Shown here piece by piece: positions 2,479 through 34,897 of a stretch of 64,000 nucleotides of DNA. The notes beneath the pieces are model-generated. The model had not been told where the DNA came from. It saw only the letters and a program-made list of their open reading frames with translations, and ran no database searches. Numbering within the stretch: position 1 is the stretch's first letter; every line of letters starts with the position of its first letter. Both the position numbers and the translations under genes were made by a program. The DNA lies in contig MU004196.1 in assembly GCA_010093605.1 (NCBI GenBank), forward strand, positions 1,076,606 through 1,140,605, written 5' to 3'. This stretch comes from Lophium mytilinum (taxonomy: Eukaryota).

Positions 2479-4416
2479 CTACATCATCAGCATGTTCTGC
2501 ACGTTTCGTGCGTGTTTGGCCTCCGCCTCCGCCCTCTCCCTCCCCAACTTCTCCAACAAGTACGCCCACGACTGGGGCGTCGGCGCCTTTGCGATGTCTA
2601 GGGACTTCTTGTAACTTGGGCAAAGAACCAGAACCTCCGGTGCCATTGGGGGGACCATTTCCGCCGCTTTTTGGAAGAATTCTTCCTTTCTCTCCGTCTT
2701 CAACCGCGCGTTCTCGTTACGGACCCTCCGAGCTTCCTCTTTCTCGAACTTCTCGATCTTTAGGGCAAACTCTACCCTCTCTGTCGCCAACCTCTGCTTC
2801 TCCTCCAAGTACTGCCTTTTCTCATCCGCCGAGGCGGCATTCAGGTCTGGGAACGTGGTCAAGAACTCGTTAATCGCGTTGTTTAGCTCCGTGGTGTGGA
2901 AGATGCTGGTGCTGAACCGCTCTGTGGCGGGCCCGGCCTTCGTGTAGTTCTTCCAGGAATCTTTAGTACCGGATGGGACACATTTCAGGACTTCAGGCGC
3001 GAGGGCAACGTGTGCTTGACCTAGCCTCTGCTTGATGGTATTGAGCGCGTCCTGCTGCTATAAGACGAGTTAGTAACATTCCAAACTACTCAGAGCCGGA
3101 AAACATACCACAACGAGCTCTGTGCTCATGTGAGCCTGGCACAAACGCTTGCAAAAGGCCCAATACGTCTTCCTCGCGAGCTTGTCCTCACACCCTGTCA
3201 CCTGGCAGCCCTTACGATTACTAAGAAGGTTCGCGTATTGTTCCTCGGAGAGTCCAGGCAGAGGGTCTGGAATCTCGTTGCCGTAGGTATTGACTCGGCT
3301 GTCTCGCCATACTGCGGTGTGATTGGCAAGCAGTGGCATGAAGAACTGCATGTCGCGACATGTGAGAAGGGTGTTCGGGTGACTCCACTTGAAGACGTTG
3401 TTCCAGATACACGCTGATACTGGTGTTCTGACCGGGTTGCTGACGCGGAGTTTAGTAGGTCGAGGGTTTGGGTCTTGCGTGTCCTTTGGCTCAGAGCGCT
3501 TGCGCTTTTTCGAGACGGCCGCCTTGGGTACCTCGTGTTGGATGTGACGGAGGGGCTGTAGAGGCTCAACAGTTTGCGTGGACTGTAAAGAATGAGCCTG
3601 ATCGGTAGATAGAGTCGCGGTGGCAGAGTGGGCGGGCTCATTGAGCTGCTGGAAGGCGGACGTGGGGGCAGGCTGGTACGTTGTGTCGACGTGCTGCTGT
3701 GCGGAAGGTGTGGGTTGGTGGGTAGAGTTAGAAGACTGTCGCATCCAGTTGAGTGGGTTCAGAGCAGTCTGGAGAGGTTGGTGGAGTCGGCTGAAGTGCT
3801 GCTGAGCAGGAACGACAGGTCGGTCGGAGGAGTCAGGAGACGGACGCATCTGGTCGAGGTGCTGTCGAGTTGTTTGGGAAGGCTGGTTGAGCTGGCCAAA
3901 GCGGTACTCGGTAGGAGTGCTGGCTTGGTAAGGATCTTCGAGCGGATGTCGGATGGACTGCTGATACGTCTGCTGGGGAGGAGGCTGGTAGATCTGGCCG
4001 AAGCGCTGCGGGGGGGGAGGGGTGACTCGATGGGCACTGTCCAGCGATTGTCGGGCTGACTGCTGAAGAGGCTCGTGCATCTGGACGAAGTGCTGCTGGG
4101 CAAGAGGGTTGCGGTTCATCGGGTCCTGGATTGGATCGTGTTGTTGCTGAGTTGATCGCGGGTGCTGGTCTAGAGGGCCGTGGGGAAGCAGCCGCTCAGC
4201 CTGGTAGGCATGATAGCGAAAAGGCGGATCTGAGCCGAAACCCTGTTGGCCAGATTGGTCGTGTTGTTGCATAGCGTCGAGGGGTTGACCGGCCGGCTTA
4301 ACAGTCTGGCCGTGTTGCGCATTGCGGATATGGCGACGGAAGTTTAAGTAGCCTTCGACGCCTATCAGAGACCTGGTGGCCTCTTGAGGATCGACCTTGA
4401 AGCTGACATCGCCCAT
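2479..4416 (-). CDS. F-box-like domain protein with Q/P-rich low-complexity N-terminus (2 exons; intron ~3058-3108)
   Basis: ATG at 4416 (MGDVSFK). The segment IWNNVF..WRDSR..PDPLPGLSEEQYANLL..GCQ..C..RKTYWAF.KRLC is typical of a fungal F-box-like family. A GTATGT..CTAAC..TAG intron joins it in frame to the 2479..2862 ORF. Confidence 0.65.
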
Positions 4417-5474
4417 GGTGACGGTTCCAAGGTGCACAGATGTCGGAGAAGAAAGAGGCGGTGATTGAGACGGAGATGGAGGTGGAGATGGAGATGGAGA
4501 TGCAGATGCAGACGCAACAAGTGGAAAGGTGATCAGAGCGCGAGCCGACGAGGTCAGCAGGCTAGCGAAAGTAAAAGGGTAAAGAGAGTCGACGCAGAAG
4601 AAATGTGTCGGTGGATGGTGCAAGGAAAGGTGTTGAGGTCGCTGGTGTAGAAGATATAGTGGCAAGCGAAACTGTCCATTATTGTGCGGGCGAACAATAG
4701 CAGGTGCGCCTTTTACTTAGGTGAAGTTCGCAGAGGCGGCCCGCGCCAATTCCACGTGGCTTATATTATTGTGCGGAAAATCCCTTTGGTACCAGTGATT
4801 CGCTGGAGCAAAAGAGGCACTGTAGCCTTCCAGAGTGCTCAAATTACTTTGCTGCTGAGCGCTCTGATGTTGGCGATGACGGTCGACGGGGGTTGATGCC
4901 GCTGTGGCGGAATGCCTCCGAGGCGGCCACGTGACATTGGTTCCACCCCTGCACGAAATAGCGGCTCCACATACCGCGGAAAGCTTGGCCTTTGGTTGGA
5001 GGCTCAGGGGCGTTTGAGACACTCCATGAGCAGCTACACTCCGGAGCTTAGGTCTGTATCGTAAGGAATTTGGGTCAGCCTCATCACCGCGTTGATAGTC
5101 GACTTCCGAATGGGTTTCCGTTCGAGCATAATACTATCGCACGGCCGGGTAGCGAATCATTCGTGAATAAGCATTGAGCATAATGTTGTAGGTAGGTACT
5201 TTGTGGCCATGTTAATTGACCCTTTCAAGCCTCAAGACAGCAGAGCTTAGGACTAGGCCTCTATCTATGTTACCTCAAGAACGTCTTCCTTACTTATCAT
5301 CCCTCACGATTACACAATTCAACATGTCGGTAGCAAAGTATGACAGATTTCGGTTGCTAATACGGTGGGATATCGACAATCGCCATGTTGTGAACAATGA
5401 CGACTACACGGGATGCATATGAAACCGCCGATGCCCCCATCCCAACGCTGACACCGCAGAATACAAAATCCGGC

Positions 5475-7508
5475 ATGTCCTTCTTGCAACTCGAAGGCCT
5501 CCATGTCTTTGTGACAGGGGCGGCGGGAGGGATTGGATCAAGCATAGTTACCGAATTCCTGGGTAAAGATCGCGAAATCTATTGCGCAGATGGTGGAATT
5601 CTCATGCTGACCGGACTGCAGCGCAAGGATGCAATGTTACTGGCCATGATCTGAAACAGAACACGGCTTTGGCGCTGTCGCCTCGACTTCATGTTGTACA
5701 AGGCGACATCTCCGACGAGAACTCGATCGAGAAATGTATGACTGCTGCCCGCGAACGCTTTGGCCCAATCCATATACTGGCAGCAAACGCTGGGATTACC
5801 GACGAGTCAAATGACTACCCTATATGGGAGATGCCGGCAGAGCTTTGGGATAGGACCTATGCCGTGAATAATCGTGGTACATTCCTCACTATAAAGCATT
5901 TCCTTCGGTCCGCAGACATCTGGCAGAAGGAATGGAACGCCGAGCTACCAAACCTAGCCATTGTGGTAACGTTAGTGACCTTCAGCCTATCGTTCTCTGA
6001 AACCCCAAATTGATGTATTTGGACCAGTGGGAGTGAGTGTGGTAAGTTTGGGCAAGCTGGGCATGTAGAGTATGCATCCGGAAAGGTATTACTCTTCGTA
6101 GATTCGAGGCTAGGACGTCACTCACGCATTATAGGCTGGGCTACAGTACGGACTAGTCCGTAGCGTCAAGAACGAGATCGTAAGACTCAACTCGGCGGCA
6201 AGAATAAATGCTGTAGCTCCAGGTTGGGTTGACACGCCTTTGATTGAAGGGCGCCTAGATGACCCTAAAGAGATGTATCGAGAGGCCCAAGCAACGTAAG
6301 ACCCTCTCAAACGCTTCAGACTCCATATTGATAAAGGAAGTGTGCCACTCCGGAAGATTGCAAAACCAACAGATGTGGCCCGCACAGTGGCTTTTTTGGC
6401 GTCTCATAGAGCAGCAGGCCACATCAGTGGCCAGTGCATATCCGTGGATGGGGGTATGGAAGGAAGAATGGTTTGGTCTGAATCCGAGATTGCCCAGAGA
6501 ACGGAAGACCTACATCTAGCAAGGCCGATGACTACGGGAGCTGCAACGCCCATTCCCATGAAGATAGCACCACCGCAGAAACCTATCCGATCAATTAAGA
6601 TTGCAGTATCAATCGATTTCGATGCGGTTTCTGGATGGCTCGGTACCGGCACTTCTCCTGAGAACAATCTCTCGGACTACAGCTCCGGCTTTTTCTCAGC
6701 TCTCGTAGGAGTTCCAAGGCTCCTAAAACTGTTCAAACGACTGGAAATAGCCGATAAAACTACCTGGTTCGTTCCCATGCATTCTGCAGAGAGCTTTCCA
6801 GAGCAGTTTAAGGCAATTCTAGACTCTGGATGTGAATTGGGATTGCACGGATATTGTCATGAAGGAGCTCCGCAACTGACGCCAGACCAAGAACGCGATG
6901 TTCTCGAACACTGCATCTCGATTGCGACGAAGCTCTCGGGAAAGAAGCCACGCGGCTACCGCGCACCACTGTATCAGCTTCGAGAAACCACCATTGACTT
7001 ACTTGAAGAGCATGGCTTTCTGTACGACTCCTCGCTCTCGCATCACGATAGCAAGCCTTACCACATACCGCGCCTGCCACCCATAACGCAACCCAACTTC
7101 ACACCCGAAGCCAGCGCTAAAGAGTGGATGCATCCACTTCCTCAGCCCGAGTCGCCAACATCCACGACGTTGGTAGAAATTCCGGGGTCGTGGTACGTGG
7201 AGGACATGACGCCGCTGCAATTCTGGCCCCACACGCCTAATTCTCAGGGCTATGTGGATGTTCGATTAATCGAGCGTATGTGGATGGATCGCTTTGACAT
7301 CCTGCATAGTGAGCTAGCAGAACAAGATGAGGATGAGTTGGTAGTGTTCCCCCTCATTCTGCACCCTGATACGAGTGGTATGGCCCATGTGATCGGAATG
7401 ATCGAACGTATATTGAAGTGGCTTCAAGGATGGGAAGACGAGGTGGAGTTTATGACGTTCGAGACGATTGCAGAGATTTGGAAGAAAGCCGAAAGAAACA
7501 AGGCATAG
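5475..7508 (+). CDS. Short-chain dehydrogenase/reductase fused to a polysaccharide deacetylase (CE4, PuuE/PgdA-like); about 5 exons
   Basis: SDR motifs: TGAAGGIG, ANAG, YASGK (YxxxK), RINAVAPG, ISGQCISVDGG. These continue with no stop into CE4 motifs SIDFDAVSGWLG, HGYCHE, GYRAPLY and LILHPD in ORF 6342..7508. Confidence 0.88.
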
Positions 7509-8717: not shown

Positions 8718-11386
8718 CTAATCAGTCAACTCATTCTCTCTTGTGACCTCTTCTCTGCCCTCTTTACCTTTCATGGCTAATAAATTCAACGCGCTTCCTG
8801 CAATGATAAATCCGCATTGATCACCACTCATTGTGTGCTTGGTTTGCACCCTTACCTCACTGCCATCCTTCTTCTTGACAAGTAGCCCCACGCTGCCCTT
8901 TCCGCCACTCTTCAGCACGTCCAGTAAGCCTACAGTACTAACGTCATCGCATGCGTCGATGAGGTCGTAGTCTGTCTCGTTGACAAAAGTCAGGGGCACT
9001 ACACCCTGCTTCTTGAGATTCGTCTCATGGATGCGTGCAAATGACTTCGCGAGAATGACGCGACCACCCAGGTAGCGTGGCTGTAGCGCGGCGTGTTCGC
9101 GCGCACTACCCTCGCCGTAGTTGTGCTCGGCGACGACGAGCCACTCAATGCCTGCGTCGCGCCAGCGCTTCGCAAGATCCGGGATGCCGGATGTGGTGCC
9201 GTCCACATCGTAGGCCGTGTTGACTTCGTCAGTGGCAGCATTGATTGCGCCAATGAGGGTGTTCTCCGATATGTTGGGAAGATGACCTTTGTACTTGAGC
9301 CATGGACCTGCAGCTGAGATGGTATCTGTTGTGCATTGGCCCTTCACCTTATAGAGAACACGAAGGCCGGCGAGTTCCGAGTTGGGGAACGGCGGGAACG
9401 GGTCTAGGAGTGCGAGGCGGGTTGATGAGGGATCAACCTTGACTTCTTCGGAGGGAGTTGGTACGCCCGGTGTAGCGAAGAACTCAGGGTTCCCTTCTGC
9501 GAAACCTGCTGCTGGAAGATCGGAGCCTTTTGGAGGGGAGAAACGGAACGGCGTGCCTGATGGTGTCGGGAGAGTGTCTGTGATCGGATTGAATGTAGTT
9601 GAGCCCGCATAAGACATGGCAGTGACGAGCTCCGGAGACGCGAGGAAATTCATCGTCAACGGATTGCCGTCATTGCGGCCTCGAAAGTTGCGGTTATACG
9701 AGGTGAAAATAGCGTTTGATTCGCCTTTTTTCACGCCGTCAGTCCGCTTCCACTGTCCAATGCAAGGCCCACACGCATTGGCAAGGACAGTTCCACCAGC
9801 AGAAGAGAAAGTCGAAAGGGTATCATCTCGGTCCAGAGTTGCACGGATCTGCTCACTACCTGGCGTTATGAAGAAGTCAGCCTTGGGGGAGAGACCTGCT
9901 GCTGATGCTTGTTTAACAAGATCTTCAGCTCGGGTCATGTCCTGGTATGAACTGTTTGTGCAGCTGCCTATGAGACCCGCACCAAACGTTCTTGGCCAGT
10001 TATTTTCCTCGACTACTGATGCGAATTTGGACAGGGGAGTAGAGAGGTCGGGCGTCATAGGGCCATTGATGTGCGGTTCGAGCTTTGAGAGGTCAATTGT
10101 AATGACCTTATCGTATTGAGCCTCAGAGTCAGCACGCAGAAGGTTCTGGACAGAAGGCGCTGATGCGATGGCTTGTGCCGCTTTAGCAATGGGTTCGCGA
10201 TGAGTAGCCACCAAGTAGGGCACGTGTTGCGCGGAGAACGGGAACAGAGAGGTTGTTGCGCCAACTTCAGCACCCATATTACAGATTGTAGCCATTCCGG
10301 TGCAGCTAAGCGTTTCGACACCAGGCCCGAAGTATTCGATCACGTAACCAGTGCCGCCCTATGTCACTATCAGAAGCTGTTTCAAGGTTATGATTGACGT
10401 GATACTTACTCTCACGGTCAGTTGCCCAGCTAGGTACATTATCACATCCTTAGGAGACGTCCATCCGCTGAGCTCTCCAACAAGTTCGACTCCTAGTATC
10501 TTGGGGGCTTTTAATTCCCATGGGGCATCAACAAGCGCGTCTACAGCATCCGCTCCACCAACGCCGATCGCAATTGCACCTAGACCTCCAGCGTTGGGCG
10601 TATGGCTATCCGTTCCCAGCATCATCAATCCTGGGGCGGAGTAATTTTCCAAGACACTCTGGTGGATGATACCCGCTCCAGGAGGCCAGAACTCAATTCC
10701 GTACTTCTTTGCCGCAGACTCTAGGAAGTCAAAGACTTCCTTATTTCCCGTTATTGATGCTGGCAAATCTGTATCTGCGCCTTTTTCTCCAACAATCATG
10801 TGGTCGCAATGTATACTGGCAGGGACTGCTGTTGACGGCAGTCCACAGGACATGAATTGTAGCAATGCCATCTGCGCCGAAGCATCCTGCATAGCCACTC
10901 GGTCTGGCTTGAGCTTTAGGTTTGCCATGCCCCTGATGTTCGCGCCATTCTGGGTATTCGTGAGGAGTGACTCTTCTGGGTTGTCCAGATGCGAGTATAA
11001 AATCTTCTCGGCAAGAGTCAATTGCCTGCTGTGTCCAAGCACCTTTCGGACTTCGTGCAGCTTCTTGACGAGCTTTTGGTATGGAGGTGTTCGAGAGGCA
11101 ATGTCCACATGGGGGTGGGGTAGGCCAGAGTGGGCCGTGGCTAGATGTCGCCTGTTCAAGATCTTGGAGGGTCGAATAGAGGCGCGTTGGCAGACCTAAT
11201 CTCATAATTAAACATGATTTCAGAGTTAAGCTCTATGTGCGAACAGAGGATGTGTGTTCAGGGTTGAAGCATATAAGGCTGGATTCGACAAAAGCTCAAC
11301 GCGTGCTAGGAGCACCAATGCAAGGCTGGGAGGTTACTTACCCCTATATTAAAGGGTCGCCCCGCCTGAAGAGCCTGCACCCGCAT
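8718..11386 (-). CDS. aco2: Mitochondrial aconitase family protein of the Aco2/AcoB type (homocitrate dehydratase-like); 3 exons
   Basis: Motifs [62 protein letters not shown]. Exon 1 ([21 protein letters not shown] donor) splices to the presequence-like [20 protein letters not shown]. Second intron ~10359-10409. Confidence 0.9.
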
Positions 11387-11997
11387 CGTTGAAAATGTTG
11401 GCGGAGGGGTCGTGTGAGGCAGCGGAGGTGAGGCTATCCACAAAAAGTTCTCGGGATCTCCTCGTGCGATGTCGGCAGCAATTTAATGCTAGCCGGGGAA
11501 GCTGTAGCCAACCACTGGACATGTTTTATAAATATATTGAAAAACGTCTATTATTGTTGTCAAGCTATCTTCCAAATACTCCAAGCCTGAAATACCAACG
11601 CTCGGACGACTTCGACTTCTAGGGGGGTATACATGCCTACAGGGCCATTTTCGTAACAAATCTGCTTTTCTTGATGTGCCGAATATGGCCGTTTAGCATG
11701 GTGTCGCTTCTCCTCCACTCAGCCTCACCAAGTGGATACGTACTTCTCAGCCTGGTCGTCTCCACGAGTTTCTTTCCATCATGCAAGCGTCACACTCCTT
11801 TCATATAGCGTGGGCCGTTCCACCGTGTTACGAAATCCCGAGTTTCAATCACCATTTTACTTCTTGCCATATTAGAGATGACTTCTGCCATCCGTCAAAT
11901 CGACGCAAGTGCCCCGCGCCTATCATCGTGCCCTTTCTATAAAGGCTCTAAAAGCTTATGAGCCTAGTCGAGAGCCTCTTCAACAGCAGTGTCTGCT

Positions 11998-14421
11998 ATG
12001 CTCACTCCGTCAATACGGGTCCTATCCCTAGACGGCGGAGGTGCACGGTGCCTGTCCGGCTTGGTGATTCTCGAGGAGCTCATTCAACACATCGAAGAGG
12101 ATCACCATGACTCTCCTCTAGGAGATTCTAGGCCTTACTACTATTTTGATCTGATATGTGGGACGGAATGGGGTGCTGTCATCGCTCTGATGCTTGGCAG
12201 ATTGAGAATGGTAGACTCCTTGCCCAGATCATTTGAGGTTGCTCTACTCACTATGCTACAACTAGACGATCAACGAATGCATACTCTGGTTCCAACGAAA
12301 TGCATTCCACTACACGCCTTGGTTTTGGGAATCTCGCGATTTCTCTAACTCAGACCGATGCGAGAAGGCTTTGGACGCACTATTTGCAGAGGAACCTTTG
12401 TATGAGGCCCAACCTAAGCAGGGACATGTATGCCACATCGTTGTACTAGTTACCGACCTTGAGAACTTGGGTACTCCAGAGAGGCTCCGCAGTTATACCT
12501 CCAAGACTTACGGAAAAGCGATCGTTAGTAGATGCACTATTTTGCAAGCAGCTTTGGCTTCCATCGCTACTCCAATGCGCACTCGGGGGGTACGTATAGA
12601 CGCAATGCTATGCGTCAGCGCAGCCATAGCGGGATTTAGCAATCCGGCGCTGGAGGCCTTGGACGAAGCAGCATCAATCTGGAGCTCTACCAAAATCTAT
12701 TCTTTCGTCAGCATTGGTACAGGAATACAAGAGCCGAGAGACAGTGCCTCCGCGGGAGGCCGTCCGCGATGGCTGGGCTATCCATCGCCCAAAGCAACGA
12801 TGGGTCTAATGAGAGTAATAACTCACATGATCATCGATCCAGAGCATACAGCAATAGAGCTTTTCAGATTTTCTAGAGCTGCCGGGTTTCTTTGCTCTCG
12901 GTTTACGCTTCCGACCGAATTTACCTCTACTACATACAAGCATGAGTGGACTCCAGTTGCATTTGAGAGGGTTCCAAAACTTACACGGCTTTACCTTGCG
13001 AACTCGGAAATCACGGCCAGCCTAATCGTCTGCGCAAACTCACTCAAACCTAGTAAATCACTCGGGACTGACGGAGAACGTGGAAACCCAGTATTCAGCT
13101 CGGTCGATCCACCTGCTGTCCCTAGCGAGACTATGTTAGATACTCTTGGGCCAGAATTCCTGGTAAAGTGTCCGTCTCTCAAGGCAGTATCAACTCAGAG
13201 CGCACTGTCAGGTACTACAGAACCTTTTGAAGGCATTCTTTTTGACGAGCCAACTGTACGATCTGATCAAAAAGAGTATGTTCCTCTCTACTCTACACGC
13301 ACACGAGCTTTGCTAACCGAACAAGAAATCTAGCTACTGACAACTACATGAAAGGCCTCCGCGCAAGATATCAGCAACTATTCAAAGACGCACCTGAAGA
13401 CATCAGGAAGGTCAAGGTTGCCGTCCTGGACAGCGGGATCGATTCTTCCCACCCTTTCATAGAGGCAAATTGGATTCGCCCTAGGTGGGGTGCTCGAGGG
13501 GAGAACGGACTTCCCCGTAAACTTGATGATGATGGATACATGGATTTCACAACCGAATCTCCTCTCACCAAGAATGGTACAGATACATGCGGCCACGGAA
13601 CCCACGTTGCCGGGATTATTCTACAACTCGCTCCGGACGCTGAACTTCACGTTGGTCGAGTGTTCCGCGACAAGACCTTCAGCAAGAAAACTGACCCCGA
13701 ATGTACCATGCGGATTGCAAAGGTATGTTAGCATCAGCCACTCAAATGCGCCATCACAGTCTAATCATCGGCCAAGGCAATTCGCTATGCCGTGGATGTT
13801 TGGGGAGTAGATGTCATTTCGATGTCCTTTGGCTTCTCCAGCATCCCCGCAGACGTGAAGGAAGCAATTATCTATGCATATTCAAAAGACCGTATTCTAG
13901 TGGCTGCAGCCTCGAACAATGGTAATTCCAAGGTAGGAAATGTTACCTATCCTGCCAGCCATCTTGGACTAGTCATCTGTATCAATGCTGCGAACTATGC
14001 TGGCACACCATACGAGTTCAACCCGCCTGCAACATCTAGTAAAGACAACTTCACAATCCTTGGCGAAGCAGTGAAATCAACTTGGTCAAAGGATGCGAAA
14101 AGAGACGCGAATCAGGAAGAACCGAATATAATGATTGAAGAAGGCGCATGGAAGAGAGCCTCAGGGACATCAGTCGCGACACCCGTAGCATCCGCAGTCG
14201 TAGCCCAGCTCATATATTGGAAAAGGATTCACCGCACTCATATCCGAAACTACCAAATGCTGGAGAACTTTGGGGGCATAAGACAGATGCTCATTAGCAT
14301 GGTCGATCGTGATCTCAAAGATGTCTATCAGTACATCCTCCCCGAAAATCTTTTAGACCCGGACGTAAAAACTGCCATTTCTGGAGTCTTTTCCATGAAA
14401 CTGAGACAAATATACTCCTGA
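11998..14421 (+). CDS. Patatin-like pseudo-phospholipase fused to an intracellular subtilisin-like (S8) protease, HET-Q2-like; 754 aa, 4 exons
   Basis: Exons 11998-12210, 12266-13275, 13326-13722 and 13777-14421 join in frame (introns have GT donors, CTCAC/CTAAC/CTAAT branch sites and TAG/AAG acceptors). Patatin part: LSLDGGGAR, FDLICGTEWG, MLGRLRM, SIGTG. S8 part: VAVLDSG, GHGTHVAG, VISMSFG, AAASN, YPA, SGTSVATP. No signal peptide. Confidence 0.88.
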
Positions 14422-14465
14422 TAGAGGCTGGTTTCAGATATGATCCCAAGTCCGGTCGCGGTGGA

Positions 14466-15341
14466 TCAAGTTTCAATTTTTACTACCAAGCAATCACTGT
14501 CGTCCATCTCGTCTCTGACCGTAGCCATGGTCCAATCCAATGGGATGCTATCTGCATCCATAGCAATACCAAAATCAGCTTCGTCGAGCTCTGCCGATTC
14601 GATCTCCGCCGGAGTGATATCCTCGTCCAAATTGGACTCCGTTCTTTCTCCTTCATGATATGCCGCTCCACTCATGTAATCCTCGCTGTCAACATCCATG
14701 GTCTTCCAGTTGATCTTGATTTTCCGCACACGATACGCGAAGATGAAGTCTGAAGACCCAGCAAATCCCACCGAGTCAAATTTGGAGTTGCTGAACCCGA
14801 CTTGGGGACCTCCTGAGACCGGAATGCCGACCATGGTTCCATTAATTGCAACGGACGCGTCTGCACCAACTTCACGATATTTCTTTCTGAGATTTTCGGC
14901 GCCTCTAGCGACTTTGAATCCAGTGATCATGTATGGAGTTTTCTTCGGGTTGGCCTCGAAGTACTGTTTAACCGTAGGTTGAAGTATGCTAGCCCTGACA
15001 TATTCCGCGAGATTCCAGTCGCTTTTCACGAAGGCTGTCTCCAGCTTGTCAAATTTCAGCACATCGGAATCATCCTTTCCGAAGTGTCCTGATATGTCGC
15101 CACTAATGCCCAATATCATGGCTAAGAACTGTGCCCATATTCCGAGCGAGCCGCCTAACGTCCTGCTCTTTTCGGCTTCCCAGTTTTCTTGATAGCTTTC
15201 AAGTATCGGAGGAGCGGGGTTCAGCGGCTCATAGATGGCCGAACCGGGAGACTTGAGGTCTGCGATAATCTCCCCAATCTTGATGGTGCCTGGGGCGTAG
15301 TCAAAATTCGGCATCTCGAAATAAGCTTTTGTTGGTGCCAT
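14466..15341 (-). CDS. Fungal gasdermin (RCD-1/HET-Q1-like pore-forming protein); 291 aa, intronless
   Basis: Fungal gasdermin signature blocks in order: YFEMPNFDY..IKIGEII, GIWAQFL, FDKLET, YMITGFKVARG, GIPVSGGP, SSDFIFAYRVRKI, followed by an acidic C-terminal tail. It lies next to an S8 protease gene. Confidence 0.85.
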   Translation of the reverse strand: MAPTKAYFEMPNFDYAPGTIKIGEIIADLKSPGSAIYEPLNPAPPILESYQENWEAEKSRTLGGSLGIWAQFLAMILGISGDISGHFGKDDSDVLKFDKLETAFVKSDWNLAEYVRASILQPTVKQYFEANPKKTPYMITGFKVARGAENLRKKYREVGADASVAINGTMVGIPVSGGPQVGFSNSKFDSVGFAGSSDFIFAYRVRKIKINWKTMDVDSEDYMSGAAYHEGERTESNLDEDITPAEIESAELDEADFGIAMDADSIPLDWTMATVRDEMDDSDCLVVKIET

Positions 15342-15902
15342 ATTAGCAGAGGACTCGCAAAATCGGGAATGTTGAGAGATTCGAGCCTTCTTCCTACATC
15401 TATATCTATTCATGCAATGCGATGGCCCAAGGCATCACCGACAAGGCTGAGAATCGGTCGCATCTGACCGCTGCGTTCTATTGGATAACGACATGGGTAA
15501 ATATGCAGCTCCGTCTCCCCGCCTCACTTTATGCTGTCTTTCGGACAAATGTGTGGTTCAGGTGCTCTATGATGCGTTTTAGCGGAGAGAACCTCGGCCT
15601 TGGTTCAGCATAGCAGGCCAATGATATGGGGAAGGGAAACGCGAGTCGCTCAGCTGGCTCTGCAGGTGGGTGAGCCCGAGGAAGGCAACTGGTTGCCCGA
15701 CTGGCATCCTCGTATTCTGCAGACCGCCAGCTAAGAGGCCTAATCTTCCCAGATTTGACCACGAGGATCTCTCCGAGCTCATCATCGTCTGTTGTTGAAC
15801 TATTCCGTCGCCGCAATCCACCTTTCGCAACCCGCGTTTGTGTCTCTCACCTTCGACAGGCGGGATCCGTAGTCTTACGACTAGGAAGTCCGGTTGCTTA
15901 GG

Positions 15903-16661
15903 ATGGATCGTTCCACTACAGCGGTACTGTCATAACAGAGTCGTTCTTCTTGCAAGGAATAAGCTGACGTCCTCCAGTATTACCAAGCTATGTATGATCG
16001 AGCTCAGTTGCAGTCTGTACAGCTCTACCAGGTCACATGCGTCAATTGCCAGACAACTCACATCATGCGATATGACGAACGGACTCGGCCTCACAAGGCT
16101 ATCTGCGCCTACTGTTCGAGATCTCTCGCTTCTTCTGTTCTTGAGATCGTGACTGCATGCCTCAAATGCGGAACGGCTCATTATATAGAACCACACGAAC
16201 GATCGGATTCTCGTAAGAGCCTGTGTCGAGTCTGCGGAAACCACCTCCCGCCAACTTTCAAGGACGACTCGGTCGTGTCGCAGGCCGTAGAGCTCGACTG
16301 GGTGAGATGTCTTAATTGCGGCGGCATTCACCACTTGCGCTCAGAAGAACGACGGCAGCCCCACCTAGCTGTTTGCGGATTCTGCAATAAACATCTTGGA
16401 CCATCTGTCAAAGAGCATATGCTAGCTGAGCATTCCAGACATCTGCAGAGTGTCCAGTGTTTCAACTGCAAATATACCCATTACTTTTCTAGAGACGAGC
16501 AAGCACAGCCTCACAAGGCCAATTGCGGATACTGTGGGCAATCTCTTTCGCGCTCTGTGGAGGAGGCTCTGATTGGTGTCGGCTCAGCGATCGGTGGTGC
16601 GCTCGTAACTGCATTGGCGATGCTGTTTGCCGCTGCCAATGCCATCTCAGGCGCTTTATGA
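15903..16661 (+). CDS. Unknown protein with four CxxC-x18-CxxC zinc-ribbon-like repeats and a C-terminal hydrophobic helix
   Basis: ORF 15990..16661 plus a probable 21-nt first exon (ATG 15903; intron 15924-15977, GTACTG..CTGAC..CAG). Repeats: CVNC..CAYC, CLKC..CRVC, CLNC..CGFC, CFNC..CGYC. Tail: ALIGVGSAIGGALVTALAMLFAAANAISGAL. Confidence 0.75.
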
Positions 16662-17271
16662 TATAGGGGAATAGCAAATGTAATGGGCTTACCTCTACGG
16701 ATTGCGTTCATTCCCATTGCCTTCTCACAACTAGCCAGATGGAACGAAGTTCACAACTAATATGATGCAATCCTCCTCCTCTCCGGATCGTGGACACACA
16801 TTGTCCTCATATGTTTAGAAATTTGCCTGACCACGTGCAAACGGCAAACCCGAGACGAAGCCTCGGAGACGCGAGAGTGCCGGCAAAGCAAAAAGAAAGA
16901 CATGTTAAGCTAAGGTGTTCTTAGCCGGTGGTATAGTCGTCGAGTGTTACAATCGCTTCCTGAGACTGGCGATGTATCGACTCTATGTGGTGTCCGGAGT
17001 GACAATGGCTTGAATGCGGACATCTCGACGCCTTCCGCTCCCTCTCCATATAGAGATCATACGTTGCTAGAATTCATATGGTGTACACGCATTTGACAAT
17101 ATGGGAAGTACTTCAGTACGCTATAATCAGATGACCACCTAACCATATGCGATATTCCGCACAGCCCATTCTATCCCAAGTCTAGCGCGACCAAATTCGC
17201 TTTTTATTGGAAATCAAGATGAATGTGCACCACCGTTCAAGCACCTCCACCCCACTCTCGCATCTTAAGCA

Positions 17272-20200
17272 CTACATATCAATTGTCTCATTGAACCTCA
17301 GCACACCATTGCCCTTCAAGAAACCATCCACGCCCTGGGGCACCTGATATGAAGATGGTGCAGCGATGGCGAGGGGCCCGCGCTGGGGAGTGTTCGCGTC
17401 CGAGATGTCAGTGATGAGGACGAGGCCAGCGGTTTTGATGGATTCGATTAGGGCGGGGGCAAGATCCTGAGTGGTGTTAGTCCTTCGCCAGGGATAATGA
17501 GGAGGCGTGTAGTGAGCACGAACCAGTAATCTCGAGCTACAGATCAAGCCCATGAAGTTATTGTCTCTCGCGATCTGGACAGCCTCTTTGACCGAAATCG
17601 TGGTGCGGCCACTGCTCTGCACTTTCAAAGGATCGTTACTAGAACTAGTAGCGTCGGCACCGAGCTCGTTGCAGAGAAGAACAGGATCTGTTGAATATTA
17701 GCTCTATGTTCACAGGATCCCACGAGGGGCTGACTTACAGTTCGGCTGCTTCCAATTCAGTGCGGTGCAAATGTCCTGATTGAAGCTCGAGAACACAATT
17801 GACCTGAGAAAGCCATCTTTCTGTCCCCTTAGATGCCTCGCGTGCTCAAACACAATCGACAGCAGTGCATCCGCAAAGTCATTGATATTTGGCGTCGGGC
17901 CTAAGCGCAAGCTTTCCTCCTCCCGCCGACTTGGGTACAGTACGTGAAGCTCGACATGGATATGCGCAGGAAGTACAGCGAGAGCTTCACGGAGCGTCAT
18001 GAACGACGTAGCTAGGATTTGATGAATTTGGGAGATGTTGACTCCAGGAGTATTTTGCAGAGTGGATGTTGCCTTGGAGCTAGAAGCGCTCTGTGAAGCT
18101 CCAATGCTGGCAAACTGATCGTAGGTGAGGATATTGACAGGAATACCGAGACCTTGATACGTTATCTTCCATTGTGGGTAAAGCACTGGAACGCCGTCAC
18201 TGGTCAATTGAACAAATAGGCGGGCATATTCGCCCGATAAGCTCGATCCAGTGATAAGGGCTGTTGGATGGGAGTCGGATTGACTGGTTGCTTTCCAGTA
18301 TGTTGCGAAGTGTGTAATCTCAAGGGGGATACCGTGGAAGGGTTTCACGACCTGGAAGTCGAAACTTAGTCGCCCAATTGCACGGAGCCGAGGGTCGAAG
18401 AGCTCAAGATGCCATTGGCCTGAGCTACTTGTCTCATTTGTGAATATCTTCGAAGAGGCGACACTGCGCGCAATTACCTTAGAGCCGAATGTTGGGTACA
18501 CATCGAAGTCAATGGCAAAGGTATCGAGATTCTCAATCTGGAATGAGATGACCTTGAATTCGTCTTGGATTGGTAGCATAATGTTTCGTGGGATGAGGTC
18601 TGAGGATTTCGAGGAAATAGTGAGGCGAGCGGCTGGATATTTATGGTCGTCGTAGAACTGAAGTGCATCCGCGCCCAGATTCTCGAAATTAATCACCACA
18701 AAGGTCTTAGTATCCAGGAAATTATGGCCATACCGTCTCAGTGGGATTATAGGCGGTGGAAGAATGAACTCCGGAATACCTTCTCCCTCTCCGAGATCCA
18801 TAGGGCCTGGTCCGGTAGTGGATTGGCCTGTGCTCAGAATCTGCGGGGACACCTTCTTCGGGGTAGCAAGGCCAACTCCTCTCCCAATGGAAGCAAGCAT
18901 TTTCATGCACTCAAAGTGGCCTTCCCAAGTGGCGTAGTACATCGCAGACAAGCCTTTCTCGTCCACAATATCCACGCTGACCCCGCATACCAAGAGCACC
19001 CTGAGACATTCGACATGTCCTTCGCTGGCGGCATGGAAAAGAGGCGTCCACTGGTATAGCTTATCGGACTGGTTGAGATCTGCACCGTATTTCTGCAGCA
19101 GCAAAAGCATCTCAGGGTCCTTCCCAGATCTTGCAACGAGATGTTGAGGATAGAGGCCTTCAGCGTCCGGAAGCATCTCAGCATGCGCTTGAAGAAGCAG
19201 CTCTACAATGGGTATGGAGCCGTGTTGGCATGCCAGATTCAATGGAATATGTTCCGATGGACCTAGTTGCTGAATTTGCGCCCCATTAGAGAGAAGGGTC
19301 TGAACACAGTCCAGTTGGGAATGGACGATCGCATGGATCAAAGGCGTAAAGTTGTCCTGGTCCTTGAAATTGACAGTGTCAGGGGCTGCATTGATTAGTT
19401 CCTGGACCAAGTCGACATGGCCATGCATGCAAGCATAGTGCAATGGTATCCTTCCATATACATCCAATGCCTTGACATTGACGTGTGCGGACAATCCTAT
19501 CTGGAGGATAACGCCTCGCCCGCAGATGGCCGCTTTATGGAGACAATTCCTTTCGTTGATTTCGTCTTCCTGGCTGAGGTTGACACGATTGGTGTCTAGC
19601 ATGAGTCGTAAGGCATTTTCGGGGGCGTCTTCGATAGTGCTTAAAAAAGCCCTTGATATGCGTTCCTGCGCGTCAACCAATGAAAAGATCCGGGCCAGAC
19701 ACTCTTCTATTTTCGCAGTATTAGCAGTGGTGATCGCTTGGGTCATCTGATTGTCCAACTCCATATCGCCATCCTGAGATGTGTCGGTTGGTGGCTGGGT
19801 TATCGACATTGGGTATTGCATCTTGTCGCCTTCTGCCCATCCTGAGAAGTCTAACAGAGCTTGCGTTGCTTGATCGGACAGGCTGCTGATAACGTCGCGA
19901 TTGAAGCAGGGCTGCACCTCAACAGCACGCGATAGGTAGAGTTGCTTCTCGCGCGACTGGCATTTGGGTCAGCCGGAGTTGCGTCCAAGGAGTCTGATGG
20001 CCGACCTTGGATGTTTTGTCCCACTAAAACATGTTAGTAGTCTCAAGACGACAGTGGCAGGTGTTGAGCGGACCTTTTTCAATATCTTCGAGAAGGCCGT
20101 AGCGTTGACCTCGACAAATTGCTGCTACCGTTAGTACTTACACATTGATAACGATGATCAAAATCACCTGGAGCTTGTTCAGATCTATGCTGAACTGCTT

Positions 20201-22039: not shown

Positions 22040-25000
22040 TCACAACTCGTCGTCGTCCTCCATCTCCGACGGCTTCAGCAGACCGCCAACCTTCATCGCT
22101 CGTTCTCGCTCCTCCTCCTTCGCCTTGTTGAGCGCTTGCTCCCGTTCTTCCGAGAACAGCTCGGCGTTGTCACCTGAGAATTCCTTCAGCGATATCAAGA
22201 AATCTCGAAGGACGAGCTTGAACTTGTTGATGTCGTTGTTTGTGTCGAACAGCGCATCAATGAAGGTAGCGATTTGCGCCCTAAAGTTATGTTAGTATGT
22301 CTCGTTTATCGGATAGGTGTTTTCACTTACGCCTGCAAGTTGGGGAAGGCATTGGCAAGCAGGTTGCCAACGAAGTTTTTTAAGAACTCCTTGTTCGGCG
22401 TGCCAGCTGGCGCCATGGTGTCGGTATAGATCGGTCCCTGCAACTTCCCCGAGTCCACTAGCCAGAACATCTTGGCGAGCAGCATCGATTGCGACTTGAA
22501 GCCGGCCTTGTGGTCGCTGTCCGTGAGCACAAAGAAGACGTCCTGGAGAATCGTTGTGTAGAAGTTCTGGAAGAAGGTGTTGCAGGTTTGCGGGTCCGTC
22601 TCCGACATGTTGGTGATCAGTTCGAAGCACATGCTCAGTCCAGCGCCCTCAACTTCGCGGTTGTCATGTTTGCTGGCCCACATGCAAGAATCGATGACGA
22701 ATTTGAAAGACCGGGCATCGAGTCTCAAGAGAGCTGGGAAGCAGCGCAAGTTGATAGTCCTCAACAGCTTGAAAAATTCGACACGGTGTTCCGGATACTC
22801 GGAGAAATCCTTGTTGATCATGTCCAATGTGCACTCAAACACGCAGTCCATGATGTTCATGATCTGATCCTCCATGAGGCTCTGTATACATGTTAGCATC
22901 TCCTATATATGACTTCCAAGCGAGCCAAACCATATGCTTGGCCATATGCTTGCTGAGATTGGGTCTCCAACGTACATGTAACTTGTTGATGATGGTAGTC
23001 ATAACGTTCAGGACCTCAGCCTCGCGGGCATCGGGGACATTCCGCTTGTAGTCGAGCAGCACAGCTTCCAAAAGCTTCGGCACAAGAGTGTTGTGCACCA
23101 TTTCCAAATCGTCGGCCTTTTCGACGTAGACGTTGATGAGCTTCAAGATTTCTTTCTTGATAGTCCGTAGTCCGCGGACTTTAGGCATCTTGGTGGCAAT
23201 ATTTCCTGTCCTTCGTTAGCTAAATTTGTCGCGTCCCTGATAATTTAGATATGTACATACCTTCTCGCTGAACGGCCTCGTCAATCAGACTGCTGCTAGC
23301 GCGATACATGGTCAGCATGTCCAGGTAGATACGGCCAATCTGTGGGTAGAAGTAGCTGCCTATGGAGCTGCAGGCGGCCACGTTTGTCTTCATGATGTTG
23401 CCGATGACTTTGATGATCTCGCCGTCATGGAGGATGGTTGGATCCTGGTTAGCTTGGCCGATAATGTTGTCCCACTATATGACTCGTTAGTAATGTTGCT
23501 GGCACAGTGTTGGTGAAGTACATACAGCTCGGTTCGGAAATGCCATTAGGTCGGAGATCAACCGCTCTTGGATGCCCTTCTGGCCTTGGGCGCTGATCAT
23601 GAAGCCACAGGCTTCGTAGAAAGTGTGGACCTGCTGCGGGGATAGATCGCATGTGATCTTAGTCAAGTTTCGGACTATCTCATCGATGAACGGCTCGGTC
23701 TCTCCTGGTTGCAGGGCCACGAAATGTCTCCGGCACTTGTTAGCGATCTTGATGAATGTATCGCAGGCCATGTCCTGAACGCCCTCGTGCGTCTCGTGCA
23801 TAAACTCAAAAAGCTTGTTGACGACGGTCTTGAGAAATTTCCAGTGGGCCTTGAGGAAACGCGGGTACTGGCCAACAATGTACATGATGTTACTGGCAAC
23901 AACGGCCTTGTTGTCCTTTCCTCGCTTCATCTCGGTGAGTCCAAGGAGGTCCTTAATCACAGTGACCAGGAATCGCTTTTCGGTTTCCTCGTTCATGGCA
24001 CCGGAAATCGAACCAATAGCCCAGCACAGAGTATTGCAGTTCGCCCATGACCACTCGGTGCCATCGACTTGCCTCGACAGTTTCTCGGACATAATCTGCT
24101 CGGTATCGTTCACGTCGAGATGCGTCAAGAACACCAGACATTCTCGGGTTGACTTGTAGAGCTGAATGGTGTCGCTCTCCTTGACAAACTCTCGGACAAT
24201 CTCCCCTTCATCATTCTCCACAATCAAGACTTCCTCGGGTCGCACCATCTTCTCGATCATGACTTGGCGCAGGTTCGTGAGGACTTCGTTGTACTTGTGC
24301 TTGCGAAGAGGATAGTTCGCAAGGATGCTAGGGTCCCGGGCTCCGCCATTGGAAACGATGCCCATATTAAGAAGCGGGTTCATGTCCTGGATCGGCAATT
24401 GCTGCATCTCATCGTAAAGTTCCGAGACGAGCTTAGTCCAGTACTCCAAGCAAATCTTGAAAATTTCCCGGTCATCGATTTGGCTGATGCGGATGAGGTA
24501 GAAGTGGCCGTGAGTGAGGAAGTCGCGGTTGGGAAGAGTCTCGATGACATTTAGATGCATTGTGAAAAAATTGCACAGGAACAAAGCGAGATTCTGAACG
24601 AATTCCTGATCCCTACTATTGCTGGACGAGTACGTGGATTTCAAATCCATGGAAAGGGGTATTATCTTGGAAATTGCGGTCAACGTCTCTGTGAACATCT
24701 GCACAAGTTTCTCGTTGTAGGAGGGAGAAGTATGAAGACTGGCGATCTCTGTTAGACACTTCAATGTGATGTTGCGGAAATCTGGGACCTCGAGGAAACG
24801 GCTACGCAGTGTCTCGATGAGACTCATGCCGGTAGGCGGAGTCTCGAAGATGTAGCCTAGTGGGATCCAGTTGAGAAAGCGCAGCAGTGTCTCCAAAGTT
24901 GCTTTGATCAGACTGGCTTGCGTCGCAGTTCGAAGGACTTCCGAGCACAACTGATAGATGGCCGTGAACTCGTTGCTCATACCCTGTTTGAGTTCTTTCG

Positions 25001-25732
25001 TCTTCGAAGAGGTCAGCTGGTCGGCCGAGTAGTCGAAGACTTCTTCTGACAGTAATCGAAGGATTGCCATGTTATTTTCGCAGATAGGCAGGCTGCTGTG
25101 GCACGAGGATATGATCTCGTTGATGAAGGTCGGCCAGTTGTGGGGCCACTCCTGTTTGAGGATGGACACGAGAACGAGGTTGAGCTTGTTCAGAAGCGTA
25201 CGCTCGTTGCGCAAGCCCTCCTCGGTGCCGGAGAGCTGGATAATGAAGTTGACGACGAAGTTGCGAATTCCTGTCGCAAGCCTGTGATCAGTAGAAGCCA
25301 TCAAATTTCGGAATATTGGTATTTACCTTGGCATTGATCTCTAGGCAAGACCTTCCATCGTGTCATGATAACATTGTCTAGAACTTGCAAGCCCAAGTCT
25401 GCCTAGATGTTAGCCTTCTCGTCGCAAATCCTGCTTCGGAATACCTTACACTTTGTCTGCGGGTACTGTGCATCCTGTAGTATCTTGTCGACCAACAGCC
25501 ACGCATCGGGATTCTCTTTGAACTGTTCGAGGAGTTAGATGGGGAAGGAGGTCGGAGGTGGGCGGGAGGGCATACCTGATTTAGAGTCGCCTGGGCCTGC
25601 TTTTGCTGGGGGAGGAAGTATATGTTAGCGGTTTGTATGTGGGGATTGAATGGAGGATAGACTCACAGACTCGCCCCGGCCTTCATAGAAGACGCGCACC
25701 GTGGCGTCCAACTCCTCGATTGACATTGACAT
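22040..25732 (-). CDS. crm1: Exportin-1 (CRM1/Xpo1), multi-exon
   Basis: [79 protein letters not shown]-terminus [17 protein letters not shown]. Confidence 0.97.

Positions 25733-33565: not shown

Positions 33566-34897
<1,332 letters not shown>

Follow-up and report, generated by a model that had tools for sequence, protein, structure and literature searches.

Can a gasdermin gene and the protease gene that faces it form a cell-death pair of their own, and what would hold the protease in check until a signal arrives? The question is raised by a locus of the fungus Lophium mytilinum, within a stretch of 64,000 nucleotides (nt) of GenBank assembly GCA_010093605.1 (contig MU004196.1, positions 1,076,606 to 1,140,605; hereafter the window), where a gasdermin gene and a gene for a protease of the subtilisin family S8 lie convergent, tail-to-tail. 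An earlier note on this DNA, drawn from its letters alone, had taken the two for a protease-gated gasdermin system. That interpretation is supported: each of its sequence-level elements is confirmed, it agrees with the published Q1/Q2L model, and the pair already stands in the catalogue of Clavé et al. (2022, PMC8851545; Datasets S1 and S2). We consider it probable (roughly 0.8) that the pair would work by this model, with a restrained protease cutting the gasdermin on cue and the N-domain forming pores.

The pair is an ordinary member of a known system, and the reading is right without being new. Dataset S1 (row 621) lists KAF2491074.1 and KAF2491073.1 of Lophium mytilinum CBS 269.34 as a pair, with KAF2491074.1 entered as a het-Q1 homolog, and contains two further Lophium clusters; in Dataset S2 (row 501) the annotation given to KAF2491073.1 is Patatin / Peptidase_S8 (PMC8851545). 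The N-terminal sequence given there is identical to that of the 754-amino-acid (aa) protease modeled below. What is new here is modest, namely a corrected gene model, a recurrent pseudo-patatin subclass of proteases, and a pair that moves as a unit.

The Gene Pair and Its Gasdermin

The elements of the pair are arranged as follows (window positions).

11998-14421, + strand: S8 protease gene
14422..14465: spacer between the convergent stop codons, 44 base pairs (bp)
14466-15341, - strand: gasdermin gene
14658..15341, - strand: pore-forming domain of the gasdermin, aa 1-228, delimited from phmmer, AlphaFold2, Foldseek and motif conservation
14658-14672, - strand: motif S224-G-A-A-Y228 at the end of that domain, the predicted protease site
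14466..14657, - strand: C-terminal tail of the gasdermin, aa 229-291 and the stop codon (63 aa, 7.0 kDa)

The convergent orientation and the stop-to-stop distance are as the earlier note had described them, which places a HET-Q2-like gene within 10 kb of the gasdermin gene. Across fungi, a protease gene is found within 10 kb for 80% of 1,884 gasdermin genes, and an S8 gene for 63% (Clavé et al., 2022, PMC8851545).

The gasdermin open reading frame (ORF) is an intact single exon for 291 aa, identical to the database protein P0001; a start at the ATG of position 15413 would give 315 aa but is disfavored, since the homologs begin at the Met of the 291-aa form. Pfam-A returned no family for the protein at E<=0.1, and its identity is therefore taken from PDB sequences and from its fold. 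Against the sequences of the PDB, phmmer finds Neurospora RCD-1-1 (8jyz_A, E 1e-7) and RCD-1-2 (E 1.7e-6). The earlier note had suggested a structural comparison with RCD-1 and bacterial gasdermins, and the AlphaFold2 model (mean predicted local distance difference test (pLDDT) 84, predicted template modeling score (pTM) 0.69) matches both in Foldseek. The top match in the PDB is the RCD-1 pore (E ~5e-12, template modeling score on the target 0.62-0.67), and the others near the top are the bacterial gasdermin oligomers 8sl0/9a84, the pores of GSDMD and of the Trichoplax gasdermin, GSDME, the crystal structure of RCD-1-2, and GSDMA3. The Foldseek probability is 1.00 for the RCD-1 pore and likewise for bacterial gasdermin, GSDMD, GSDMA3 and GSDME. 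The identification as a gasdermin thus holds by sequence as well as by fold. Of the 935 relatives that a HMMER scan of 50%-identity representatives collects at E<=1e-3, 438 also pass E<=1e-10.

Where would such a protein be cut? In alignment A1, which has 124 rows (the query and 123 of the best 150 relatives, nearly all of 260-310 aa), positions 224-228 read K-G-A-L-[Y/L/F] in consensus, with G225 in 85%, A226 in 82% and Y, L or F at position 228 in 85%, and a poorly conserved acidic stretch follows directly. The tail of the Lophium protein (aa 229-291) has 21 Asp/Glu vs. 3 Lys/Arg; its residues 233-244 have a pLDDT <50 and are followed by confident beta strands at 270-276 and 283-289. This tail is presumed to be the inhibitory peptide. 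HET-Q1 is cut at F238-A239 and its pore has been described (PMC13475620), and both L237 and F238 are needed for the cleavage (PMC8851545). Judged from the motif, Y228 would be the equivalent of F238.

The Protease and Its Corrected Gene Model

Is the facing gene an intact protease? The deposited GenBank/NCBI protein, P0008, has 625 aa and is without the catalytic Ser672; the database protein identical to part of the protease carries the name 'FabD/lysophospholipase-like protein [Lophium mytilinum]'. Introns located by phase and by enumeration of open frames give a gene of four exons and a product of 754 aa.

11998..12210, + strand: exon 1, aa 1-71, with patatin strand beta1, the DGGGAR loop and the elbow GTEWG (Pfam Patatin E 4.9e-7)
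within 12160-12174, + strand: Glu57 codon at the degenerate nucleophile elbow GTEWG, exon 1
12211..12265, + strand: intron 1, 55 nt, GTAGAC..CTAG, skipped in the X3 contig (see below)
12266..13275, + strand: exon 2, aa 72-408, with the remaining pseudo-patatin to about aa 335 (nt ~13057), including Ser189, and then a poorly conserved linker
13276..13325, + strand: intron 2, 50 nt, GTATGT..CTAAC..AAG, skipped in the X3 contig
13326..13722, + strand: exon 3, aa 408-540, with the end of the linker and the first part of the S8 domain (Pfam Peptidase_S8 E 2.5e-12)
13429-13431, + strand: Asp443 (VLDSG) of the S8 triad, exon 3
13594-13596, + strand: His498 (GHGTH) of the S8 triad, exon 3
13723..13776, + strand: intron 3, 54 nt, GTATGT..CAAG, skipped in the X3 contig
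13777..14421, + strand: exon 4, aa 541-754 and the stop codon, with the second part of the S8 domain (Pfam S8 E 3.1e-8)
13915-13917, + strand: Asn587 (AAASNNG) of the oxyanion hole, exon 4
13933..13972, + strand: extra 40-nt 'intron' of the deposited model
14170-14172, + strand: catalytic Ser672 (SGTS), exon 4

The intact 754-aa gene of the earlier note therefore stands, as a product of the splicing of three introns and not of a single ORF. Single-intron models that link 12211 to 12353 are ruled out by phase, and 12211-12265 serves as the working intron 1.

A contig of 5,184 nt from run X3 maps to 11900-15500 with zero mismatches and skips exactly 55, 50 and 54 nt, the three GT..AG introns, and nothing else. 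Run X3 is only guessed to be RNA, and no run with matching contigs is recorded as RNA; the contig lacks the three introns and is therefore RNA-derived, and its splice pattern confirms the 754-aa model. It spans the protease and gasdermin genes, is unbroken from 13774 to 15500, and as a whole extends over ~11500-16850. The contig is strandless. Its course across the pair would mean either that the two transcripts, which converge, overlap within the 44-bp spacer or that the protease mRNA continues antisense into the gasdermin.

How, then, does the deposited protein come to be shorter? P0008 equals the 754-aa exon model with the 40-nt intron added, which shifts the frame and brings in a stop at 14072, upstream of the catalytic Ser. 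No joint is seen at 13933-13972 in the single RNA-derived contig, and the alignment of the read-through product with P0009, a relative of 758 aa, takes in the motifs WKRASGTSVATPVA and QYILP and continues to the end of the product; the 754-aa model is therefore supported, and the deposited 3' end is wrong. The 40-nt intron is spurious. The public record, truncated by this mis-predicted intron, makes the protease look catalytically dead, and catalogues built on it will misjudge the gene.

The S8 motif blocks align with those of sphericase (1ea7) and of a subtilisin BPN' variant (7am8). The complete Asp-His-Ser triad and the oxyanion Asn that the earlier note had claimed are all present (D443/H498/N587/S672), which is true of the 754-aa model and not of the deposited 625-aa one. 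Patatin and Peptidase_S8 are the only Pfam domains on P0008 and P0009; neither protein has an I9 propeptide or any further Pfam domain, and neither has the NACHT or NB-ARC NTPase that marks fungal NOD-like receptors (NLRs). The protease had also been said to be without a signal peptide, and a hydropathy heuristic, used in place of a dedicated predictor, agrees: no signal peptide or transmembrane segment appears in either protein, the maximum Kyte-Doolittle mean over 19 residues being 1.39 (protease) and 1.55 (gasdermin).

A Patatin Domain Without Its Dyad

The protease's N-terminal portion is a patatin-like region of ~335 residues (Pfam Patatin E 7.6e-10 on P0008). Its glycine-rich oxyanion loop, DGGGAR, is intact at aa 12-17. 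At the nucleophile elbow, GTEWG, Glu57 stands instead of the Ser of G-x-S-x-G. In an alignment with nine stand-alone patatins (A4), where the elbow is GTSTG in all nine and D-G-[GA] is present as well in six, the column of the catalytic Asp is occupied by Ser189 (CVSAA). The same column is Ser in P0009 and in the metagenomic relatives L001, L005 and L049, and Ala in L002 (CIASS). Asp183 (IDAM) had been a candidate for the catalytic Asp and is ruled out by A4, which places the column at Ser189. With Glu57 and Ser189 in place of the dyad, the domain cannot act as a lipase; the 'pseudo-patatin' of the earlier note is thus confirmed in a stronger form, both dyad residues being lost. CapV (8zr9_A, E 5e-5, residues 5-120) is the sole patatin-family entry among the 60 PDB matches listed of 85.

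Is this loss peculiar to one gene? The word 'patatin' has 0 occurrences in the main text of PMC8851545 and 5 in Dataset S2, that is, in 5 of the 1,601 Q2L rows. Two reviews contain both patatin and HET-Q2, and in the passages covered neither links patatin with Q2L proteases. A Coccidioides preprint makes no mention of gasdermin or HET-Q2 in the text covered, and no discussion of a recurrent pseudoenzyme state of the patatin on gasdermin-linked S8 proteases was found in the literature searched. The elbows of the five rows, and of eight Joint Genome Institute (JGI) metagenomic loci in which a patatin relative lies beside a gasdermin, read as follows.

Dataset S2, this locus: GTEWG
Dataset S2, Lophiotrema nucula: GSEWG
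Dataset S2, Aspergillus caelatus: GTGMG
Dataset S2, A. fumigatiaffinis: GTGMG, in a protein that also has a P-loop NTPase C-terminus
Dataset S2, Pseudogymnoascus species: GTSTG
L001 and L049: GSEWG
L051 and L062: GSKWG
L005 and L007, near-identical loci: GTGFG
L042: GTSTG
L002: the contig ends before the motif

With the window excluded, the nucleophile Ser is replaced by Glu, Lys or Gly in 9 of the 11 readable gasdermin-linked patatin domains. No S8 domain was found on the short contigs of L042, L051 and L062, and the patatin-S8 fusion is only putative in those three; P0009 (GSEWG) is ~92% identical to the L001 gene and does not count as an independent case. The DGGGxR loop is degenerate as well in L005 (DDGGIR), L049 (DAGGAG), L051 and L062. 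As judged by these motifs, the patatin on gasdermin-linked S8 proteases is recurrently a pseudoenzyme.

Loss of the Ser alone is not rare, since the 60 readable elbows among proteins found with P0008 comprise 32 with Gly, 26 with Ser and 2 with Glu. The Gly-type patatins (P0017-P0055) belong to a family of ~620-aa proteins that is widespread in fungi and has no S8 domain, 30 of the 32 reading GTGTGG; in public records some go under 'calcium-independent phospholipase A2-gamma' or 'patatin-like phospholipase', and by motif they look like pseudoenzymes too. Among the 61 matches to P0008, P0009 is the only other protein with both Patatin and S8, although the word-index search is insensitive and the count is not evidence of rarity. 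The equally insensitive search for longer proteins with exon 2 as the query returned only the protease itself.

On a quick maximum-likelihood tree of gasdermins (57 rows), the patatin-linked members are clustered (5 changes, against 7.6 on average after shuffling, a count as low being reached in 0 of 500 shuffles), although near-copies inflate the clustering and several unlabeled neighbors lie on contigs too short to score. The starred branches still require at least 3 changes in patatin linkage. The A. fumigatiaffinis protein, KAF4210851.1 (PMC8851545, Dataset S2 row 618), joins a Gly-type patatin and an S8 domain to a 2,031-aa C-terminus annotated as P-loop NTPase and adjoins a gasdermin; the protein is NLR-like, and both of its N-terminal domains derive from enzymes.

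A Pair That Moves as a Unit

Does the pairing outlast its surroundings? The JGI metagenome contigs with close gasdermin relatives were scanned for neighbors by tblastn (65 loci, within the fetched DNA). A relative of the window S8 domain is present in 44 of them, the 21 without a match being mostly short contigs, and a relative of the patatin domain in 8. The closest relative of both genes is L001 (gasdermin 54%, S8 55% and patatin 43% identical), whose gasdermin is P0005. The pair is tail-to-tail there too, and its neighbors are a metallophosphoesterase and a formin, with no aconitase or ankyrin-GDPD gene of the kind that flanks the Lophium pair. The same layout in an unrelated neighborhood fits a self-contained module; the gasdermin-protease pair has traveled as a unit into a different genomic context.

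The gene structure is shared in part. An in-frame interruption equivalent to intron 3 is present in L001, and the position of intron 1, after LGRLRM, is common to L001, L005, L007 and L049. Three short contigs of X4, an air metagenome, are 95-99% identical to parts of both genes, and in one of them a 2-bp insertion and three substitutions all fall within intron 1. Against a 349-nt gasdermin fragment (window 14542-14890), six of the eight listed X4 differences are nonsynonymous, including S224R and M223I beside the predicted cleavage motif; against a fragment of protease exon 2, one of four changes the amino acid. These counts come from single contigs at a depth of 2-5, where errors are possible.

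How the Pair May Work

In Podospora anserina, HET-Q2 is a cytosolic S8 protease that removes ~5 kDa from the C-terminus of HET-Q1, leading to activation and death, and Q2L proteins are presumably repressed when full-length (PMC8851545). Cleavage, pore formation, N-terminal autoinhibition and the existence of a trigger are carried over to Lophium from this family. The 291-aa gasdermin would be made as an inactive monomer, in which the acidic C-terminal tail of 63 residues would lie folded against the pore-forming domain. The non-catalytic N-terminal region of the protease may hold the S8 domain off, or couple it to a cue. Once activated, the S8 domain would cut the gasdermin linker at or just after G-A-x-[Y/L/F] (SGAAY228), the predicted counterpart of the site in HET-Q1 that lies after L237-F238 and before A239. 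The freed 25-kDa N-domain would then oligomerize into membrane pores and cause cell death.

Several points weigh against this scheme. HET-Q2 did not cleave the two other Podospora gasdermins (PMC8851545), and a shared family is therefore no ground for assuming specificity. Relative to HET-Q1, the register of the predicted cut carries an uncertainty of 1-2 residues. The AlphaFold2 model of the gasdermin is the pore form, with long beta-hairpins, and says little about the inhibited or resting state. The full-length fold of P0009 (mean pLDDT 58.9, <50 at residues 114-302 and 316-419) is confident only in the S8 domain and unusable over the patatin, and it lends no structural support to the idea, which we only infer, that the patatin holds the protease off. 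Finally, the X3 contig is unstranded and runs across three genes, and is no proof of a separate sense transcript of the gasdermin.

Why should a protease carry a dead patatin at all? It is possible, though unlikely, that the module works and that the domain is a membrane- or lipid-targeting or an oligomerization scaffold, the protease being controlled elsewhere, by transcription or by a partner acting in trans. Patatin-like domains are membrane-active in other proteins. That the interdomain linker is poorly conserved, and that the P0009 fold offers no structural evidence of domain docking, would also suit a scaffold. However, an unrestrained protease constitutively co-expressed in one cytoplasm with its substrate gasdermin should kill, and one spliced RNA contig covers both genes. 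The Q2L family argues against a mere scaffold as well: 1,374 of 1,601 Q2L proteins have N-terminal extensions of >100 aa, which the authors treat as regulatory (PMC8851545).

The domain might instead be an old, conserved receptor in a subclass of gasdermin-activating proteases, one whose retained patatin ligand pocket senses a lipid or small molecule, in the manner of CapV activated by cyclic GMP-AMP (cGAMP), and so releases the S8 domain. We regard this as quite improbable. If true, it would mean a ligand-gated protease-gasdermin pathway in a eukaryote, beyond a merely repressed protease.

That the pair serves allorecognition (heterokaryon incompatibility), as a polymorphic locus causing death upon fusion of incompatible haplotypes like Podospora het-Q, is in our view very doubtful. 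The founders of the family, HET-Q1/HET-Q2 and RCD-1, are het systems, and the mostly nonsynonymous differences in the X4 gasdermin fragment would fit a polymorphic locus, but those variants may include errors. Moreover, a single haplotype carries both genes here and in L001, unlike the het-Q idiomorphs, and het systems are regarded in print as special cases derived from such clusters. Hardly credible is a meaningless adjacency or a decaying relic, for which the early end of P0008 before Ser672 would speak: the truncation stems from a predicted intron for which the RNA contig shows no joint, the frame stays open on read-through and can be aligned with P0009 as far as the end, both ORFs are intact, the pairing is kept in another genomic context (L001), and S8 genes lie beside gasdermin relatives in two-thirds of the loci scanned (44/65).

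Comparison with Known Systems

The protease-gated reading draws its closest parallel from HET-Q1/HET-Q2 of Podospora. In both cases a gasdermin of ~280-290 aa ends in a short C-terminal peptide, inhibitory in HET-Q1 and presumed so here; the protease is a cytosolic S8 subtilisin without a signal peptide or I9 propeptide; and a hydrophobic or aromatic residue stands in a conserved motif at the cleavage site, which is a predicted site in Lophium. In contrast to HET-Q1/HET-Q2, one haplotype carries both genes here, and unlike HET-Q2, the protease has a 425-residue N-terminal region that contains the dead patatin. The Q2L clusters (e.g., P. anserina Q1-6/Q2L-6, TPR-CHAT) resemble the Lophium locus in that a gasdermin gene adjoins the gene of a multidomain protease, with the full-length protease presumed repressed and the isolated protease domain active (PMC8851545). 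The N-terminal domain differs: the text of that paper treats TPR, ANK, WD40 and NACHT types, whereas here it is the Patatin of five Dataset S2 rows.

In bacterial gasdermin-protease operons, too, a short-tailed, cleavage-activated gasdermin sits beside a protease gene, of the subtilase or caspase-like kind, and the fold of the window gasdermin matches the bacterial pores 8sl0 and 9a84. The Lophium pair differs from them in being eukaryotic, intron-containing and convergent; no patatin-protease fusion came up for bacterial gasdermin systems in the portion of the literature covered. RCD-1 of Neurospora crassa (PDB 8jyz, 8jyy) is the closest solved relative of the window gasdermin in sequence and fold, but it is activated by co-expression of two antagonistic alleles and not by a protease. 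The patatin family itself occurs in the N. crassa NLR PLP-1 and in CapV of the bacterial cyclic oligonucleotide-based antiphage signaling system (CBASS), as it does N-terminally in the window protease. Unlike the latter, PLP-1 and CapV are active patatin-like immune effectors and require the Ser-Asp dyad for killing. With Glu57 and Ser189 at the dyad positions, the patatin domain here is therefore not the effector, and the killing part is the separate gasdermin.

Protease-gated gasdermins connect fungal, bacterial and animal cell death, and the locus adds no new kind. The pseudo-patatin subclass would be a tractable place to look for the signal that switches on a fungal Q2L protease, and might be a handle on the trigger.

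Neighboring Genes

How far does the module extend? The earlier note had placed the pair between aco2 and nuc-2. The flanks are an aconitase-family gene and a gene with ankyrin, C2_GDE1 and GDPD domains, putative counterparts of these two; an SPX domain was not found for the second gene in the single upstream ORF tested. Relatives of the aconitase, nuc-2-like and zinc-ribbon neighbors were sought in the 65 metagenomic loci. Next to a gasdermin relative none turned up except for ankyrin-repeat matches, in L041, and the genes that flank the pair are therefore outside the module. Pfam assigns no family at E<=1e-4 to the ORFs 3070-4716 and 30327-32498. The other neighbors, of which the first, fourth and fifth are housekeeping ones, are as follows.

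6300-7508: polysaccharide deacetylase-like ORF
8718-11195, - strand: aconitase-family gene, one flank of the pair
17710-19968, - strand: ankyrin/C2_GDE1/GDPD gene, the other flank
23487-25322: exportin-1/CRM1
33566-34897: delta-aminolevulinic acid dehydratase

Between the gasdermin and the ankyrin gene, a 223-aa ORF (15990-16661, + strand) is divergent from the gasdermin and begins ~650 bp from its start. No relative of it stands beside the gasdermins of the 65 metagenomic loci. Its product contains four zinc-ribbon-like repeats of the form CxxC...CxxC, ends in a hydrophobic C-terminal tail, and matches Pfam DZR only just at the cut-off (E 3.7e-6). The X3 contig, which reaches ~1.3 kb past 15500, probably covers this ORF as well.

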